Positions 3,315-41,633 of a stretch of DNA of 43,870 nt are shown here, piece by piece; the stretch's first letter is position 1, and the number at the start of each line of letters is the position of its first letter. The notes under the pieces were generated by a model. The model did not search any database. It was not told the origin of the DNA and saw only the letters and a list, made by a program, of their open reading frames with translations. The translations under genes and the position numbers were made by a program. The stretch comes from Escherichia phage AnnaReinhart_Bas75. The DNA lies in sequence record PQ850596.1. The stretch is one strand, 5' to 3'.

Positions 3315-3335
3315 AGCCCCGAAAGGGGCTTTCTT
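3315..3335 (+). terminator. hairpin AGCCCC-gaaa-GGGGCT followed by TTCTT; intra-operon attenuator or processing hairpin after the portal gene
   Basis: Perfect 6-bp GC-rich stem with GAAA tetraloop and short T-tract, seen directly in sequence. Confidence 0.45.
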
Positions 3336-3340
3336 ATAGT

Positions 3341-4417
3341 ATGCTATTAACTTTAGCGCCACAGGGTTTATCTATGAGCTTACTTACATCCCTAATCAGC
3401 CATCAGATATGGCTGCAACGCACCGCATCCGGTGAGGTGAAAGACCTCACGCCGTTCATTCAGGAGATAAGGGATGAAATCAAACGGCAGGTGCTGTTAT
3501 TCGGTGACGACGGTCGCAGCACTGCGCGACTGAATAAACTGTTACGCGACCTGGAAGAAGCACTAACCGGTATTACGGGTGACTGGCAAACAAAGCTAAC
3601 AGACGACCTTAAGGAACTGGCGGCGTACGAGGCTGAGTGGAACGTAAAGACACTGACCGCCAACGTAGACGCGGAATTTGTTACGCCTACCGCTGAGCAG
3701 GTATGGGCCGCTGCCGAGTTTCAACCATTATCATTGAGCGACAAGCCCGTTGATTTCACCAAGCTGATGTCTGGATGGGGCGAAACGGAAGTAGCACGTC
3801 TTGTAACTGGAGTTAAGATGGGCTTTGTGCAAGGTCAAACCACACGGCAGATTGTTAAGAATGTTGTTGGCGCTGGTGGACTAGCCGACATCTCAGAACG
3901 TAACGCGACTACGGTAATCCGCACCGCGCTGTCCCACGTATCCAACGAGGCCCGTAACGAGACGTACCGCCAGAACGACGACATCATCGAGAAGTACGAG
4001 TGGGTGTCAACGCTTGACAGCCGCACCAGTACGATTTGCAGGGTCAGAGACGGGATGACGTGGGAAATTGGTAAGGGGCCGATGCCCCCAGCCCATCCGA
4101 ACTGCCGGTCGTGCACGGCTCCGGTAATCAGTTCCGAGTTCGACTTCCTCGATAAAGGCGCAAAACGCGCGGCTAAAGGCGCGGAAGGTGGCACTCAGGT
4201 AAGCGCAGACACCACTTACTACGAGTTCCTTAAACAACAACCGGCGTGGTTTCAGGACCAGGCGCTCGGCCCGGTGCGAGGTAAGATTTTCCGTAACAGC
4301 GGTATATCGCCGGAAGAGTTTCGCGTAATATCTGTAGATGGTTTCGGGAATCCGCTCACGCTTAAGCAGATGGCGGAACTCGATAAACGTGTTGCTGATT
4401 ATCTGAAAGGGGAATAA
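3341..4417 (+). CDS. head morphogenesis / minor capsid protein (Mu gpF / SPP1 gp7-like)
   Basis: 358-aa ORF following portal, the conserved position of F-like head morphogenesis proteins; alternative start at ATG 3374. Family assignment from position and general sequence character only. Confidence 0.55.
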   Translation: MLLTLAPQGLSMSLLTSLISHQIWLQRTASGEVKDLTPFIQEIRDEIKRQVLLFGDDGRSTARLNKLLRDLEEALTGITGDWQTKLTDDLKELAAYEAEWNVKTLTANVDAEFVTPTAEQVWAAAEFQPLSLSDKPVDFTKLMSGWGETEVARLVTGVKMGFVQGQTTRQIVKNVVGAGGLADISERNATTVIRTALSHVSNEARNETYRQNDDIIEKYEWVSTLDSRTSTICRVRDGMTWEIGKGPMPPAHPNCRSCTAPVISSEFDFLDKGAKRAAKGAEGGTQVSADTTYYEFLKQQPAWFQDQALGPVRGKIFRNSGISPEEFRVISVDGFGNPLTLKQMAELDKRVADYLKGE

Positions 4418-5111: not shown

Positions 5112-5138
5112 TTTTCACCTCCTGTTTAAGTTAACTGA

Positions 5139-5167
5139 ATAGTACCCTATTATATTGGGGTGTGCAA
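5139..5167 (-). promoter_or_regulatory. sigma70-like promoter TTGCAC-N17-TACTAT containing palindrome AATAG-N4-CTATT
   Basis: Read on minus strand: TTGCAC accccaatataataggg TACTAT, then AGGAGG RBS and ATG of 4908..5111. Near-identical to sites at 14262, 37025 and 38441. Confidence 0.6.
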
Positions 5168-5442
5168 ACTATTTATTTACGTATTCCAGTTATTCCACCG
5201 AATTGTAAATGTTGGAATAAACTATTCGAATAGTTGACTTTTCACTAAAAATATGATAAGCTCCACCTGAGCTTGTGAAATATGAACAAGCGACCGCGGC
5301 GCGGGCAGGTAACGGAGCGGGACGTAAGTCCTGAGTGTAGTTACGCTGACGCGTTCGGAAGGGCCATACTCTATTGCTTGTGTAAAAAGTAACAGGTTTA
5401 CTGAGATTACGCCGTTTCTATGTTTAAATGATAAGGACTAGC

Positions 5443-14233: not shown

Positions 14234-14261
14234 AATTATTTCCTCAGTAAGTTACATGTGA

Positions 14262-14290
14262 ATAGTACCCTATTATATTGGGGTGTGCAA
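14262..14290 (-). promoter_or_regulatory. sigma70-like promoter TTGCAC-N17-TACTAT with AATAG-N4-CTATT palindrome
   Basis: Identical 29-bp core to 5139..5167; drives minus-strand cassette 14233..12484. Confidence 0.6.
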
Positions 14291-27260: not shown

Positions 27261-27579
27261 TTCTCAATTCCTTATATTGTTGGTGTATGTGCTTACTATA
27301 ATAGTCTGCTATTAGGGTGTCAATCTGTTTTATCGAACCAACGACAAAAACATTTGCACCACGTTTACGCATCCGCTCGTGCTCTCGTAACTGGTGCGGG
27401 TCTGGCTTCGTGTTTTCGTCTTTCTTAACCTCGACGAACCAGATGATGCCACCAGGGAGAATTACCAGCAGGTCGGGGGCGCCGGAGCGCCCCTCATAAG
27501 ACAGCTTACGAACGAGGCCACCAATGGCCTCGAATCGCTCTTTTGCGTATTTCTGCACGCGCCCCTCAGGCGTACTCAT
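27226..27579 (-). CDS. VRR-NUC domain nuclease
   Basis: 117 aa; PD-(D/E)xK-type core (GAPDLLVIL ... FVEVKK). Confidence 0.65.
   Translation of the reverse strand: MSTPEGRVQKYAKERFEAIGGLVRKLSYEGRSGAPDLLVILPGGIIWFVEVKKDENTKPDPHQLREHERMRKRGANVFVVGSIKQIDTLIADYYSKHIHQQYKELRNETRIRPQTST
27295..27323 (-). promoter_or_regulatory. sigma70 promoter TTGACA-N17-TATAGT with AATAG-N4-CTATT palindrome in spacer
   Basis: Minus strand reads TTGACA ccctaatagcagactat TATAGT; embedded in 3' coding region of VRR-NUC gene, upstream of 27069..27260. Confidence 0.55.
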
Positions 27580-30859: not shown

Positions 30860-30888
30860 ACTATAATAGCTAACTATTCAGGTGTCAA
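30860..30888 (-). promoter_or_regulatory. sigma70 promoter TTGACA-N17-TATAGT with AATAG-N4-CTATT palindrome
   Basis: Minus strand reads TTGACA cctgaatagttagctat TATAGT; upstream of 30174..30800. Confidence 0.6.
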
Positions 30889-33152: not shown

Positions 33153-33317
33153 CTACTCGCCGTCGCCTTCTGTAAGGCTATCGTCTATTAATTCAAATTT
33201 ACCGTTTGGGTGTTGAATAGCTTCTTGCCCGCAATGGTCGCAGACAACAAGTTTATCGAACCCATCAAACTCATCCCCTACTACGCAAGAAAGTACAAAT
33301 TTATGTTTTGTGCACAC
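33153..33317 (-). CDS. hypothetical small Cys-rich protein (start uncertain)
   Basis: Protein-like frame with paired Cys (SCVVG ... VCDHCG) downstream of promoter 33409..33437; only GTG at 33317 found as start and the frame stays open upstream. Confidence 0.3.
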   Translation of the reverse strand: MCTKHKFVLSCVVGDEFDGFDKLVVCDHCGQEAIQHPNGKFELIDDSLTEGDGE

Positions 33318-33408
33318 TTCTTGCGGAGCGCCGAAAATTGCTCGAAAACCTTTAGCTATGGCCCCAGTGATTGTGTTCTTATCTGCCCCTCTCGTTTGGT
33401 ATGGGCTA

Positions 33409-33437
33409 ACTATAATAGCGAACTATTCACATGTCAA
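33409..33437 (-). promoter_or_regulatory. sigma70 promoter TTGACA-N17-TATAGT with AATAG-N4-CTATT palindrome
   Basis: Minus strand reads TTGACA tgtgaatagttcgctat TATAGT; followed by conserved AAACGAGAGG leader. Confidence 0.6.
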
Positions 33438-33457
33438 TGGGCTTTTCTAAAATAATT

Positions 33458-33471
33458 AATATGGTACTATT
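33458..33471 (+). promoter_or_regulatory. second palindromic box (AATAT-ggta-CTATT) in divergent control region before the XRE gene
   Basis: Imperfect copy of the AATAG-N4-CTATT box 44 bp from the first; overlaps TACTAT that may be the -10 of the plus-strand promoter. Confidence 0.4.
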
Positions 33472-33501
33472 CACATATCAACTGACTAAGGAGTAATTGA
33501 C

Positions 33502-33717
33502 ATGCAACCATCTGAACTAGGCATCCGTGTAGAACAACGCCGCAAAGAACTCGGCATCTCCCAGCGCCGTCTGGCGGTCCTGGCTGGCGTTTCCCAGGGC
33601 GCGATTAACCAGCTTGCGCTCGGGGTAACTCAGGACGTCCGGCCGGCGACGCTGTTCAAGCTGGCGGAAGTGCTACAAGTAGACGCCAAGTGGCTGGCGT
33701 TAGGTGAAGGGGCTTAA
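33502..33717 (+). CDS. XRE-family (Cro/CI-type) HTH transcriptional regulator
   Basis: 71 aa; classic HTH_3 signature LGISQRRLAVLAGVSQGAINQLALG; AAGGAG RBS; only plus-strand gene inside the minus-strand replication module. Confidence 0.8.
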   Translation: MQPSELGIRVEQRRKELGISQRRLAVLAGVSQGAINQLALGVTQDVRPATLFKLAEVLQVDAKWLALGEGA

Positions 33718-33732
33718 AGCCCCTTTCTTTTT
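33707..33732 (+). terminator. rho-independent terminator AAGGGGC-ttaaa-GCCCCTT followed by TCTTTTT
   Basis: Hairpin overlaps the stop codon of the XRE gene; strong T-tract. Confidence 0.65.
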
Positions 33733-33734
33733 AC

Positions 33735-35942
33735 CTATTCCAAATCCTCCTCTGTCACCACCAGCATCTCATTTGGTTCGTATAGTGTCTTCGGCCTTAA
33801 TCTATCCCCTATTCTTTCGGGTATACGATATGTTCTCGGTACTACTTCGCCGTTAGCATCGCAACCAAGCATTAGTTCTCCATCTTTCAACATTTTATCA
33901 AGATGGGTGTTAGTCACAGAGAAGTCACCGGAACGAGCCACTATCTGCTGCTGAGTAAAACCGCGACCTGTGTCATCTGACTGTTGCAGGTCTTCCAGTG
34001 CCGAAAGTATTGACTCCTTCCTTACTTCATCCCTGCCGCGTTTAACTTCTTCCTTTACTTTTTGCTTACCTTCTTTCGTCAACCCTTCTTCCCGCTCTTT
34101 CTCCTCGTCAGTTTTGAACGGCTCGAAACCCCACGGCATCAACACAAGCGCCTTGTGTGGTTCAGGAAGGTCCAGGTTTACGATTGTGCCGTATTCTTCT
34201 GTGCCCCCCAGGAACTCAACCGCACGGTACTCTTTCGGCGGCGGAGCTTCGCGGAACTGCACAGACTCCAGCACCATGCCAACCGTTTTCTGTTGAGGAC
34301 CGTGCTTAAATTTCGAGTGGTATACGTTTATTTGACGGTCGGTTGCACGTTCGATTGTCAGTTCCACGTCAACACCCGCATACAGCGCCCCACTGCCGCG
34401 TGCTTTCTTTCCACCCTTCGGCGTATGGTGGACAACGCCTACTGCGGCTTTAGTTGCATCGCGTACTTCTTTCAGAATGGCGATAACTTTACCCATGCCG
34501 ATTGCTGTTGATGAACTGTTCTCGTCGAACTTATCAATCGTCAGTGCCAGGGTCTGGTTAAGGGTGTCGAACGCAACCATGCCAATTGGCTCGTCGCCAG
34601 CAGTTTCGCGCATTAACTTAATCAGGCTTTTAAGTTTGCCGACTTCGCCCATATCGATGACGTGTACATAATCTTTACCTTCCCCGCCATATTTAGCCGC
34701 TAGTGCATCAATACGGGTGCGTGTAGCTGCGCCACCCTCACCATCAATATAGAAATGGTGGCAACGTTGGGTGTCAGCCCCCGCAAACCGGTACCCGGCG
34801 GCGCTCAGGTACATCATCCCCAGCGTATAGAATGATTTGTACGTGCCGGATTCCCCGACAATATCCCAGATACAATCCGACGGCATGTACCCCTCAACGA
34901 CGAAATCAGCCTTTACCGGTTCTGGTAACTCGTCCTCTTCTTCAAGGTCTTCCAGCGTGCAAGTTACAGGCTCCTCGTTCTCTGTGCGGTGCAGTTCTTC
35001 AATCTCTTCTTCCGGTAAATCAGGCAGAGCCGCACGAATGCTGTTAATACTGATAGGTTGCTTGTCTACGTTAAGCTCGTCTGGCAGGCCGCACATACGC
35101 AGGGCCAAATGCTGTCGGCGGTTAAGCTCGGTGCAAGCGCCGTTGTTTGTATGCTGGCAGACAAAGCGCACTTCTTTACCGTCGAGCATTATGCTGGTGG
35201 AGCCCTTGCCTGTATGCAGATGTTCGTTAGGGCATGGCACTTCGTACCCGCGCCCGGAAGATAAAGCGTCAAGGCCAAGCTCGGCTTCGCAGAAGTGTGC
35301 TATATCCGCGTTAAGCCCATGCTCATCAGCGGCAAGTGTTTTAGCCTCACGCTTACGCAACCCCATCTCTTCGGCTTTCTTGATGTACCGCTCGGCACGG
35401 ATAACACGCCCTTCTGTAACCGTTATCTTCGACTCTTTGTGCGGCAGGTAGATAAGGCGGTTGCCATCTTCCGTGCAGTGGTCGCGCAACGCTTCGTCTA
35501 TTTCTAACTCTGCACAAATAGCACGTTGCACCATCCACGCGTCGTTAGAGTTAAACGGCGTGCGAGCTGGAACCAGAACGCGGAAAGCGTAATCTCCGTT
35601 TTTACACACATGCTGATGCGATGCCGTTGTATGCAGAATATTGAAGAACGGTGCGTTCTTGAATTTGCGGGTAAGGTCGCGGTACTGAGTACGGTTGAGA
35701 TGGTCAAAATCGAACTTAACCACACTGTCTTCCAGAATAGCGTTCTTACGGCGACCGCCAACAGGCGCAATAGCTTTCTGTTTAATCTTGGCCGCGTCGT
35801 ACTCTTCCTTAGTCCATGACGGGTCCACGGATAAACGCTTCGATGTATCGCAGACATACTCCACAAACTGCTCGAGCGGCATCTCACGCGCTACAGGGTT
35901 TTTATCGAATGTGTTACGCAGCGTTGCAAAAACAATATTCAT
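33735..35942 (-). CDS. DNA primase/helicase (P-loop NTPase)
   Basis: 735 aa; Walker A GESGTYKS; RecA-like region with VVHHTPKGG; size and position typical of phage primase-helicase. Confidence 0.6.
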   Translation of the reverse strand: MNIVFATLRNTFDKNPVAREMPLEQFVEYVCDTSKRLSVDPSWTKEEYDAAKIKQKAIAPVGGRRKNAILEDSVVKFDFDHLNRTQYRDLTRKFKNAPFFNILHTTASHQHVCKNGDYAFRVLVPARTPFNSNDAWMVQRAICAELEIDEALRDHCTEDGNRLIYLPHKESKITVTEGRVIRAERYIKKAEEMGLRKREAKTLAADEHGLNADIAHFCEAELGLDALSSGRGYEVPCPNEHLHTGKGSTSIMLDGKEVRFVCQHTNNGACTELNRRQHLALRMCGLPDELNVDKQPISINSIRAALPDLPEEEIEELHRTENEEPVTCTLEDLEEEDELPEPVKADFVVEGYMPSDCIWDIVGESGTYKSFYTLGMMYLSAAGYRFAGADTQRCHHFYIDGEGGAATRTRIDALAAKYGGEGKDYVHVIDMGEVGKLKSLIKLMRETAGDEPIGMVAFDTLNQTLALTIDKFDENSSSTAIGMGKVIAILKEVRDATKAAVGVVHHTPKGGKKARGSGALYAGVDVELTIERATDRQINVYHSKFKHGPQQKTVGMVLESVQFREAPPPKEYRAVEFLGGTEEYGTIVNLDLPEPHKALVLMPWGFEPFKTDEEKEREEGLTKEGKQKVKEEVKRGRDEVRKESILSALEDLQQSDDTGRGFTQQQIVARSGDFSVTNTHLDKMLKDGELMLGCDANGEVVPRTYRIPERIGDRLRPKTLYEPNEMLVVTEEDLE

Positions 35943-36067
35943 TTCTTTTTCTCCGCACGTTCTAAGGCTTCCTGCATACGGCGCATTGCGCGGTTCATCT
36001 TTACCGGTGCGAAGAAGTCAGCGCCGTGTTTCTGGCGGCGTAGCTGTGGAACTATTAACTTTGTCAT
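35939..36067 (-). CDS. hypothetical small basic protein (42 aa; unlisted)
   Basis: AAGGA RBS; stop overlaps primase ATG (ATGA). Confidence 0.35.
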   Translation of the reverse strand: MTKLIVPQLRRQKHGADFFAPVKMNRAMRRMQEALERAEKKK

Positions 36068-36136
36068 TGTATAATCCTTATGCTTACTTTGATGATTTGT
36101 ACTTTAGCCCCGACGTTCTGGCGTTGGGGTTTCTTT

Positions 36137-36427
36137 TTACCGTTTAGCCAACCCTTCCAGCAAATTTTTATACTCTTCAAAATATTCCTCGACCAAATCA
36201 TCGCCGAAATAGAAGTCGATATACTCGAGATTATCTCTTACGTTAAGCGATGCCGACATGGTGCTTAGTTGGCGTAAGCTAATTAGCTTCATTTCTGTTT
36301 CTACGCAGAAAGGCCGGTAGGTATCAAGATGGCAAGAGATATTGAAGCATAAAGCGAACTCTCCGGCCACGGAGTGAACCATATACACTTCGTTTTCTGC
36401 TTTATTGTGGAAAATTACGCCTTTCAT
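36137..36427 (-). CDS. hypothetical protein (96 aa)
   Basis: Start overlaps stop of upstream HTH gene; acidic C-terminus. Confidence 0.5.
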   Translation of the reverse strand: MKGVIFHNKAENEVYMVHSVAGEFALCFNISCHLDTYRPFCVETEMKLISLRQLSTMSASLNVRDNLEYIDFYFGDDLVEEYFEEYKNLLEGLAKR

Positions 36428-36606
36428 TTCACGTTCTCCTTAATCCATGCTTCGACTTTATTACGGTCAAATGTTCCCGGTAAACGGCGGCCCATAACCT
36501 TAATACAGCAGTCAGGGAATTTGCCGCTGCGCAACCAGTTATTAATCGTCTGACGTGTCACCCCGATACGTTCAGCTACTTCATTCTGCGTCATATAATG
36601 CGACAT
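36424..36606 (-). CDS. AlpA/excisionase-type HTH DNA-binding protein
   Basis: 60 aa from ATG 36606 (CAGGAGATATAAAAATG); motif TQNEVAERIGVTRQTINNWLRSGKFP. ORF-track version extends to 36720 but lacks RBS. Confidence 0.6.
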   Translation of the reverse strand: MSHYMTQNEVAERIGVTRQTINNWLRSGKFPDCCIKVMGRRLPGTFDRNKVEAWIKENVK

Positions 36607-36703
36607 TTTTATATCTCCTGTTTGTTTGGTGAAACTGAGTATAGGATAGCGGGAATGTAAAAGCAACCAATCTCTGTAATATTTAATCTTTACAAAAATG
36701 TTA

Positions 36704-36733
36704 TTGAAAGTTCTTGACACATGTTTGTATAAT
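36704..36733 (+). promoter_or_regulatory. candidate sigma70 promoter TTGAAA-N18-TATAAT
   Basis: Good -35/-10 with 18-bp spacer; no protein-coding gene follows for about 350 bp. Confidence 0.4.
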
Positions 36734-36757
36734 GGTTTTGGGACTTGTATATATTAC

Positions 36758-36795
36758 GGAGTTGACGAACCCTCCCCGAGGGATTCGTCAACTCC
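36758..36795 (+). other. long inverted repeat / RNA hairpin (17 bp stem with one bulge, CCC loop)
   Basis: GGAGTTGACGAA-CCCTC ccc GAGGG-a-TTCGTCAACTCC read directly from sequence. Confidence 0.6.
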
Positions 36796-36932
36796 TCCCA
36801 GACAGCTGAGATGCTTGCCTTGGGGTTTAAGGATAAGTGTATCTAAATCTCATTTAAAGAAGTAACCCGCTGAAATATCTACTGTTTCTTAATGTGCCGT
36901 AGATTCGCAACCGTAAAAATGTAACGATTATT

Positions 36933-36955
36933 GGGCAGGCTTAAGCCTGCCCTTT
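36933..36955 (+). terminator. hairpin GGGCAGGC-ttaa-GCCTGCCC followed by TTTAGTT
   Basis: Perfect 8-bp stem, plus-strand orientation, in a non-coding region. Confidence 0.5.
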
Positions 36956-37024
36956 AGTTACCAAGTAATAAGAATAAAGGCACAACCCTCCCCGAAGAAT
37001 CACAACGGCAACGTAACTATTCTC

Positions 37025-37053
37025 TTGCACACCCCAATATAATAGGATACTAT
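37025..37053 (+). promoter_or_regulatory. sigma70-like promoter TTGCAC-N17-TACTAT with AATAG-N4-CTATT palindrome
   Basis: Near-identical to 5139 and 14262 copies; followed by CGAAACGAGA leader, AGAGGAG RBS and ATG 37088. Confidence 0.6.
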
Positions 37054-37087
37054 TCACTTATCGAAACGAGACAGAGGAGTGGTGGTT

Positions 37088-38440: not shown

Positions 38441-38469
38441 TTGCACACTAAGATAGAATAGGCTACTAT
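38441..38469 (+). promoter_or_regulatory. sigma70-like promoter TTGCAC-N17-TACTAT with AATAG-N4-CTATT palindrome
   Basis: TTGCAC actaagatagaataggc TACTAT; followed by ACAAACGAGAGGAG leader and ATG 38501. Confidence 0.6.
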
Positions 38470-38500
38470 TCATTTACACAAACGAGAGGAGAGACGGAAG

Positions 38501-41583: not shown

Positions 41584-41604
41584 TCTATTTTCTGCAATGA
41601 CTAG

Positions 41605-41633
41605 TTGACTATTACCTACGACCCTATTATATT
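41605..41633 (+). promoter_or_regulatory. sigma70-like promoter TTGACT-N17-TATATT
   Basis: Followed by CGACAACGAGAACGGAG leader similar to those after promoters 37025 and 38441. Confidence 0.5.

Follow-up and report, generated by a model that had tools for sequence, protein, structure and literature searches.

A 434 Cro-Type Protein without a CI Partner as the Probable Repressor of Promoter-Embedded Palindromes in a Kagunavirus

In Escherichia phage AnnaReinhart_Bas75, the product of the XRE-family gene xre is probably a 434 Cro-type repressor that works without a CI partner and damps most of the phage's promoters, including its own. The window analyzed here, a 43.9-kb stretch of DNA, is essentially the complete genome of this phage, a Kagunavirus of the subfamily Guernseyvirinae, which is regarded as virulent. 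A query of 7.6 kb matched 483 phage records, among which Salmonella and Escherichia phages predominate, and aligned with Escherichia phage VerenaMeyer_Bas76 at 96.6% identity with 97% of its length covered. Two regulators are found among the 85 annotated coding sequences (CDS) of the 97%-identical Bas76: a “transcriptional regulator,” which corresponds to xre, and an “excisionase and transcriptional regulator,” which corresponds to the gene for an AlpA-like HTH_17 protein. Neither an integrase nor a CI repressor (HTH plus S24 peptidase) is annotated among these 85 CDS, in agreement with the original prediction, in which neither was seen.

GenBank records already name xre “repressor” or “CRO,” and genome papers on these phages either call the gene “repressor” or say that Cro is absent. 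A literature search found no published description of the operators reported below, and we know of no enterobacterial regulator whose site is recognized as AATAG-N4-CTATT. No regulator is annotated in Bas71, Bas73, or Bas74, which made these phages look like natural xre-less controls. Bas71 was rejected when alignment revealed an intact gene that had been misannotated: xre is present but unannotated at positions 2754 to 2969 of PQ850615.1, where the record instead shows a 96-nt open reading frame (ORF) in the opposite orientation. Records that apparently lack the regulator may thus simply be misannotated.

Results and Discussion

A palindromic box inside sigma-70 promoters

Seven exact copies of the palindrome AATAG-N4-CTATT occur in the window, compared to 0.06 expected (100 shuffles, maximum of 1), and 12 sites are found when up to one mismatch is allowed, compared to 0.90 expected. 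No 5- or 6-mer palindrome of the genome ranks above AATAG with its 4-bp spacer, and every other AT-rich one has fewer than three copies. Two of the one-mismatch matches lie outside any promoter context and are probably due to chance; one spans the start codon of a head-morphogenesis gene (3335 to 3348), and the other is in the interior of the primase gene (35769 to 35782).

All seven exact boxes fall inside sigma-70-type promoters, as determined from their flanks and the computed positions of the hexamers. At three sites, all reading leftward, the box occupies the promoter spacer: TTGACA is followed by 4 nt and then the box, the last base of which is overlapped by TATAGT, so that the box spans about −25 to −12. 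These sites are found at 27300 to 27313, at 30865 to 30878 (upstream of the genes for the single-stranded DNA-binding protein and the polymerase block), and at 33414, next to xre. With the box in a 17-bp spacer (TTGACA-17-TATAGT), they are the genome's best three matches to the sigma-70 consensus, at 11 of 12 positions each. The remaining exact boxes lie over the −10 element of promoters of the form TTGCAC-17-TACTAT, in which TTGCAC is followed by 10 nt and then the box; positions 8 to 13 of the box are the −10 hexamer TACTAT itself, and the box spans about −19 to −6. Two of these promoters are leftward (boxes at 5138 to 5151 and 14261 to 14274, the latter serving a repair-exonuclease island), and two are rightward (boxes at 37041 to 37054 and 38457 to 38470). 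The second box at xre, which is rightward, shares this register.

A third register is represented by two plus-strand boxes with one mismatch each, in which the box spacer contains a −35 hexamer, TTGACT. The box at 41600 to 41613 (ACTAGTTGACTATT) belongs to the promoter TTGACT-17-TATATT and is conserved in 23 of 26 genomes; the other, at 5229 to 5242 (AATAGTTGACTTTT), lies over a −35-like hexamer. Both are weak operator candidates. The presence of one dyad in different promoter registers indicates that it is an independent element and not a by-product of the −10 sequence. Two other readings, of the spacer-register sites as plus-strand promoters and of the palindrome as a pair of overlapping −10 hexamers, were rejected because the spacings do not fit.

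At least two promoters in the window have no box. One, a probable leftward promoter near 36660 to 36632 (TTGCTT-17-TATACT), would serve the AlpA-primase operon, and the other reads rightward at 36704 to 36733 (TTGAAA-18-TATAAT; 11/12). The latter lies in a gene-poor region of about 330 nt (36700 to 37040) between two divergent early operons, which contains a long, near-perfect hairpin near 36758 to 36795 and a hairpin with a short T-run near 36934 to 36956. The segment from 36740 to 36965 folds at −77 kcal/mol (z = −5.4) and matches no Rfam family, nor was an RNA family of Rfam matched anywhere else in the window. The region could represent a structured noncoding RNA or an origin-like element.

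The xre control region

The original prediction had placed two boxes 44 bp apart (start to start) between a leftward promoter and xre, and all of the coordinates that it gave for this region check out. Box 1 (AATAGCGAACTATT; 33414 to 33427) is an exact palindromic operator candidate located at about −25 to −12 of the leftward promoter, where it covers the spacer and reaches one base into the −10 hexamer. Box 2 (AATATGGTACTATT; 33458 to 33471) has one mismatch (G5 to T) and lies at about −19 to −6 of the xre promoter (P_xre), overlapping its −10 element. Given the 0.90 one-mismatch sites expected in the window, the probability that chance alone would put one no more than 100 bp from an exact box is about 0.002.

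The leftward promoter (TTGACA-17-TATAGT, 11/12; 33437 to 33409, minus strand) drives a 54-aa ORF, a gene for a 166-aa protein, and the exonuclease block. No Pfam domain was found in either the 54-aa or the 166-aa protein. The former, encoded on the minus strand at 33153 to 33317, with the box 1 promoter on one side and the 166-aa gene on the other, has two Cys pairs (CxxxxxC...CxxC). A segment of about 250 bp containing this ORF is absent from Bas76 and Bas71 and is therefore a short insertion, specific to the lineage, that immediately follows a strong and putatively regulated promoter.

Each box lies in one copy of a direct repeat of 25 nt (TAATAGCGAACTATTCACATGTCAA at 33413 to 33437 and TAATATGGTACTATTCACATATCAA at 33457 to 33481) that consists of the box plus CACATRTCAA and is 84% identical between the copies. 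The whole module, consisting of the operator and the reverse complement of the −35 hexamer, is a duplication, and the second copy (33457 to 33481) also yields a weak leftward promoter match (TTGATA-18-AATTAT).

On the basis of conservation and geometry, P_xre is probably the plus-strand promoter with the extended −10 element TGgTACTAT at 33462 to 33470. Its hexamer TACTAT (33465 to 33470) is the right half of box 2, its −35 is poor, its start site would be near 33477, and its geometry matches that of the promoters at 37041 and 38457. The hexamer, the preceding TGg, and the leader down to AAGGAG are common to Kagunavirus and Jerseyvirus, and in Jerseyvirus TTGCGT is found 17 bp upstream of TACTAT. 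A promoter scan also returned an alternative, TTCACA-16-TAAAAT (10/12; 33426 to 33453, plus strand), which would place box 2 at about −2 to +12. It is conserved in Kagunavirus but not in Jerseyvirus, and the conservation between the genera therefore favors the TACTAT reading. With either promoter, a protein bound at box 2 would be expected to block P_xre.

The leader ends in a ribosome-binding site (AAGGAG; 33488 to 33493) followed by xre (33502 to 33717, plus strand), which encodes a single-domain HTH_3 protein of 71 aa. The gene had been thought to have its own terminator, and an intrinsic one was indeed found at 33706 to 33732, with a hairpin (33706 to 33726) followed by a T-run on the plus strand only. 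Since this terminator has no minus-strand T-run and is one-directional, transcripts of the minus-strand primase operon probably continue across xre and both boxes in the antisense direction. This convergent operon has no terminator of its own at 33706 to 33735.

Two further observations concern this locus. A perfect 9-nt inverted repeat, which may be due to chance, is formed by CATGTCAAT (33430 to 33438), in the −35 region of the leftward promoter, and ATTGACATG (33496 to 33504), which includes the xre start codon. In addition, the interval from 33500 to 33700, within the xre coding sequence, has a GC content of 61.5%, compared to about 40 to 50% in the flanking 200-bp intervals.

Conservation of the boxes in Kagunavirus and related lineages

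The control region was compared with 34 distinct Kagunavirus versions taken from viral contigs. The half-sites of box 1, AATAG and CTATT, are invariant in all 35 Kagunavirus sequences, and the 4-bp spacer takes six forms (CGAA, CTAA, TGAA, CAAA, CGAG, and CTAG). The stretch between box 1 and TGTCAA also varies in sequence, and its length varies by one base. Box 2 is identical in 34 of the 35. At the 27300 site, eight box variants occur among 30 genomes, with a single half-site change, and in general each spacer-register site has six to eight spacer variants and nearly invariant half-sites in about 30 Kagunavirus genomes. Fixed half-sites around a drifting center are the pattern that would be expected of a site for a dimeric protein that leaves the center uncontacted.

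Related boxes are found at comparable promoters in five other lineages of Guernseyvirinae, and in each of them two boxes flank xre. The core common to the subfamily is a looser half-site, A-(A/T)-T-A-(G/C), followed by a 4-bp gap and the mirror image. Salmonella phage Jersey has four exact copies of AATAG-N4-CTATT (0.05 expected) and three one-mismatch sites, and four of these seven coincide with promoters that its annotators had marked independently. Pantoea phage AH01 has no AATAG box but has five exact copies of AATAC-N4-GTATT (0.04 expected). Five AWTAS-N4-STAWT sites are present in the Cornellvirus Shemara, compared to 0.68 expected, and sites of this type number seven in Hafnia phage TS33 and five in Enterobacter phage phiEap-2, the latter two being raw counts. 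The sites in Cornellvirus, TS33, and phiEap-2 are only pseudopalindromic.

The two-box layout, with one box over the −10 of xre and the other in the divergent promoter, recurs in the other lineages, although the box variant differs from one to the next. In AH01, for example, the divergent promoter adjoining xre has a perfect box and the −10 of xre has a box with one mismatch; in Jerseyvirus, box 2 retains a single good half-site. The distance between the centers of the two boxes is 44 bp in Kagunavirus and TS33, 55 bp in Jerseyvirus, 65 bp in AH01, and 64 bp in two Cornellviruses and phiEap-2 (for phiEap-2, counted by hand to a site with two mismatches). These distances of 44, 55, and 64 to 65 bp correspond to 4.2, 5.2, and 6.1 to 6.2 helical turns, values at which the two boxes share one face of the helix. 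The conserved phasing is suggestive, and no more than suggestive, of cooperative binding.

These comparisons bear on the possibility that the boxes have no dedicated binding protein at all and were inherited in a duplicated promoter module, being kept by promoter function or by recent recombination between promoters. Consistent with such an origin, the two local boxes lie within a 25-nt direct repeat, flanks such as ACTATTCACATGT are common to distant box sites, and the right half-site in the −19 to −6 register is the −10 hexamer itself. However, the half-sites in the spacer register are nearly invariant at positions where sigma-70 reads no bases, while the four central bases and the flank drift. 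The dyad is also maintained in different registers, and in AH01 both halves have changed together, from G...C to C...G, at five sites. We therefore regard an origin without a binder as improbable, and recognition of the boxes by a dimeric protein as the better reading.

Two other phages were discarded as uninformative for comparison. The xre-primase layout is also found in Serratia phage Scapp, a GC-rich phage in which the box is missing; Erwinia phage EhrS_59 is a temperate lambdoid phage, and its match is its CI repressor.

XRE as the candidate binding protein

XRE matches the Pfam family HTH_3 (E = 1.2e-12). Among solved structures, its closest relative by sequence is 434 Cro, which is also a protein of 71 aa (E = 1.8e-6 over residues 6 to 68), followed by the 434 repressor and P22 c2. 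A single-sequence AlphaFold (AF2) model of XRE has five helices (pLDDT of 85), and of the folds in the PDB it matches 2cro best, with a TM-score of 0.70. Both the homology and the fold match agree with the earlier description of the 71-aa protein as Cro-like.

The recognition helix of XRE is S31-Q-G-A-I-N-Q37. Gln32 aligns with Gln28 of the 434 repressor and is invariant in the XREs of all six lineages, and every lineage variant of the half-site begins with A at its outer end. Beyond this invariant Gln and first A, no convincing residue-to-base code emerged when the six recognition helices (SQGAINQ, SQSLITH, TQSAISH, TQGGIGH, KQAFVSH, and SQGRVSH) were compared with the half-site variants.

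An XRE is encoded in each of the six box-bearing lineages, at 36 to 51% identity to the protein in the window (about 50% between Kagunavirus and Jerseyvirus), and it is the sole HTH regulator that they have in common. A Pfam scan of 83 small nonstructural proteins of Shemara and AH01 identified exactly two with HTH_3, HTH_31, or HTH_26 domains, both of which are the XREs, and none with HTH_17. The other DNA-binding domains among the 83 are AP2/HNH domains of homing endonucleases and subthreshold matches to MarR and NinH. Likewise, among the genes of the window that have conserved counterparts in Jersey, Shemara, and AH01, xre is the only one to encode a recognizable sequence-specific DNA-binding domain. 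The lineage distribution, the homology to 434 Cro, and the operator layout thus support the original proposal of XRE as the prime candidate for the box-binding factor.

The AlpA-like HTH_17 protein (36424 to 36606, minus strand) had been named as an alternative binder, and it could be imagined to act on the AATAG boxes either as a repressor or as a MerR-style activator bound in the spacer. It is 80% identical in Kagunavirus and Jerseyvirus, the two genera with exact AATAG-N4-CTATT boxes, and is absent from Cornellvirus, which likewise has no exact box. Its gene is probably the first in an early operon without a box, and the gene in its position in another Kagunavirus was classed as early (PMC12645636). 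However, no homologue was found in Shemara, AH01, TS33, or phiEap-2, despite the related boxes at similar promoters in these phages, and its absence from four of the six lineages counts against it. Furthermore, the 60-aa protein has no dimerization module suited to a 14-bp dyad, and the box promoters have near-consensus hexamers with optimal spacers of 17 bp, whereas MerR-type activators need 19 to 20 bp. A role for the AlpA-like protein as the binder is thus very unlikely.

The distribution of this gene follows the arrangement of the helicase-primase block. This block (33735 to 36720 in the window) was compared with its counterparts in four other genomes (L005, 35330 to 38169; L068, 42509 to 45141; L071, 8217 to 10851; and L072, 37244 to 39897). 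In Cornellvirus, AH01, TS33, phiEap-2, and Scapp, xre heads the helicase-primase operon. In Kagunavirus and Jerseyvirus, the block is inverted and has the AlpA-like gene at its head; the gene is found only in lineages with the inverted block, where its promoter is apparently without a box.

It is also hard to believe that the phage recruited a host DNA-binding protein to recognize the boxes. The sites are AT rich and lie in host-type promoters, neither of which is direct support for a host factor. Jerseyvirus and Cornellvirus both grow on Salmonella but have different boxes, and Kagunavirus, on Escherichia coli, shares a single box with Jerseyvirus, on Salmonella. The box variant thus follows the lineage of the phage and not its host, which makes a host factor unlikely.

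A proposed Cro-type circuit in lytic growth

If XRE binds the boxes, a dimer would contact the outer five bases on each side of the 14-bp AATAG-N4-CTATT site and leave the central four uncontacted. Such operators would be built into most of the strong sigma-70 promoters of the phage, and a bound dimer would occupy the spacer or the −10 element (or the −35, at the two weak sites) and keep host RNA polymerase off. Exact sites would be expected to fill first, and since box 1, which belongs to the strongest promoter class, is among them, the strong leftward promoter would be shut. The imperfect box 2 over the −10 of xre would fill later, at higher levels of protein, capping the expression of xre through negative autoregulation. 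As XRE accumulates during lytic growth, the outcome would be a feedback damping of the transcription of replication genes and small genes. We infer each of these steps: XRE as the binder, repression as the consequence of binding, a higher affinity for box 1 than for box 2, and any role in timing. Repression fits better than activation, because the near-consensus target promoters with 17-bp spacers need no help.

Several observations do not sit easily with this circuit. Kagunavirus and Jerseyvirus share the AATAG core despite having different recognition helices (SQGAINQ and SQSLITH, respectively), three lineages have degenerate sites, and box 2 of Jerseyvirus has one good half-site. Moreover, if nearly every promoter is a target, including weak sites before late genes, it is hard to see how early-to-late switching would be ordered. 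Published transcriptome sequencing (RNA-seq) data for the Kagunavirus vB_Eco_K1B4 come from time points of 5, 15, and 30 min in a latent period of 30 min and bin 5 to 30 min as “early,” which is too coarse to decide the matter (PMC12645636). In these data, the gene that we take to be xre was classed as “middle” (PMC12645636); we matched xre with gene 004, and the AlpA-like gene with gene 008, by gene order only.

More tentatively, the lytic program of Guernseyvirinae as a whole might be a Cro-only circuit, in which graded operators (from exact to one mismatch, and in the spacer, −10, or −35 register) order expression and the two phased operators at the xre locus act cooperatively. Its specificity may have drifted (AATAG, AATAC, and AWTAS) as in heteroimmune temperate phages, possibly resulting in a lineage-specific exclusion of coinfecting relatives. 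We consider this broader scheme possible but doubtful.

It is less likely still that XRE binds the boxes mainly to exclude or silence superinfecting related genomes, in a manner resembling heteroimmunity, or that it regulates in both directions by activating P_xre from box 1. In favor of such roles, operator variants differ among lineages that share a host, as they do in heteroimmune lambdoid phages, and the helical phasing of boxes 1 and 2 is conserved. However, the center of box 1 is about 56 bp upstream of the presumed xre start, which is not a standard position for an activator, and no feature of the sequence calls for a role in exclusion. Damping of the phage's own promoters thus remains the reading that we prefer.

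Phages of Kagunavirus and Jerseyvirus are often isolated for use in therapy and food safety, and the identity of xre as a Cro-type lytic regulator would explain why the presence of this gene does not imply lysogeny. The set of boxes represents a defined group of candidate regulated promoters for phage engineering, and the lineages offer a natural series of regulators and operators, apparently changed together, in which drift in HTH specificity could be studied. No new class of mechanism is opened.

Comparison with known systems

The controller (C) proteins of restriction-modification systems, such as C.AhdI, are also small XRE-fold dimers and appear among the fold matches of the XRE model at ranks 7, 15, and 21. 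C proteins resemble the system described here in having two palindromic boxes upstream of the gene and in the autoregulation proposed for XRE, although no restriction enzyme is controlled here and sites are found beyond the regulator's own promoter. The mycobacteriophage L5 repressor gp71 offers another parallel, in that sites for a single small HTH repressor are repeated many times across the genome. The stoperators of L5 are asymmetric 13-mers that are oriented with transcription, often lie inside transcription units, and serve prophage immunity. In contrast, the sites described here are dyad symmetric, all of the strong ones lie in promoters, and the phage is virulent. Regulation by AlpA/Xis-type HTH_17 proteins would call for such a protein wherever boxes are present, and it is absent from four lineages; the 17-bp promoter spacers likewise differ from the 19 to 20 bp of MerR-type activation. 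A bistable switch of the lambdoid CI/Cro type would include a divergent CI with an S24 peptidase and an integration module, neither of which is found in the annotation of Bas76.

The closest parallel is with phage 434. The operators of 434 repressor and Cro are 14 bp long, with the outer five bases on each side contacted and the central four not (PMC1636474). The candidate sites reported here are of the same length and have the same arrangement of five conserved, four variable, and five conserved bases, a likeness in sequence layout only. As in 434, the sites overlap early promoters and the promoter of the regulator itself in a divergent arrangement. The differences are that the phage described here has no CI partner, integrase, or lysogeny switch; that 434 has clustered operators (3 + 3, at OR and OL), whereas 8 strong and 2 weak sites are distributed here across the genome in different promoter registers; and that the half-site is ACAA in 434 but AATAG here. 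The phasing of the boxes hints at cooperativity between distant dimers, which 434 Cro is not known to show. Nevertheless, XRE resembles 434 Cro in its length of 71 aa, its five-helix HTH_3 fold, and its significant sequence similarity, and together with the operator geometry and the overlap with its own promoter, these features place it in the 434 Cro/HTH_3 family.
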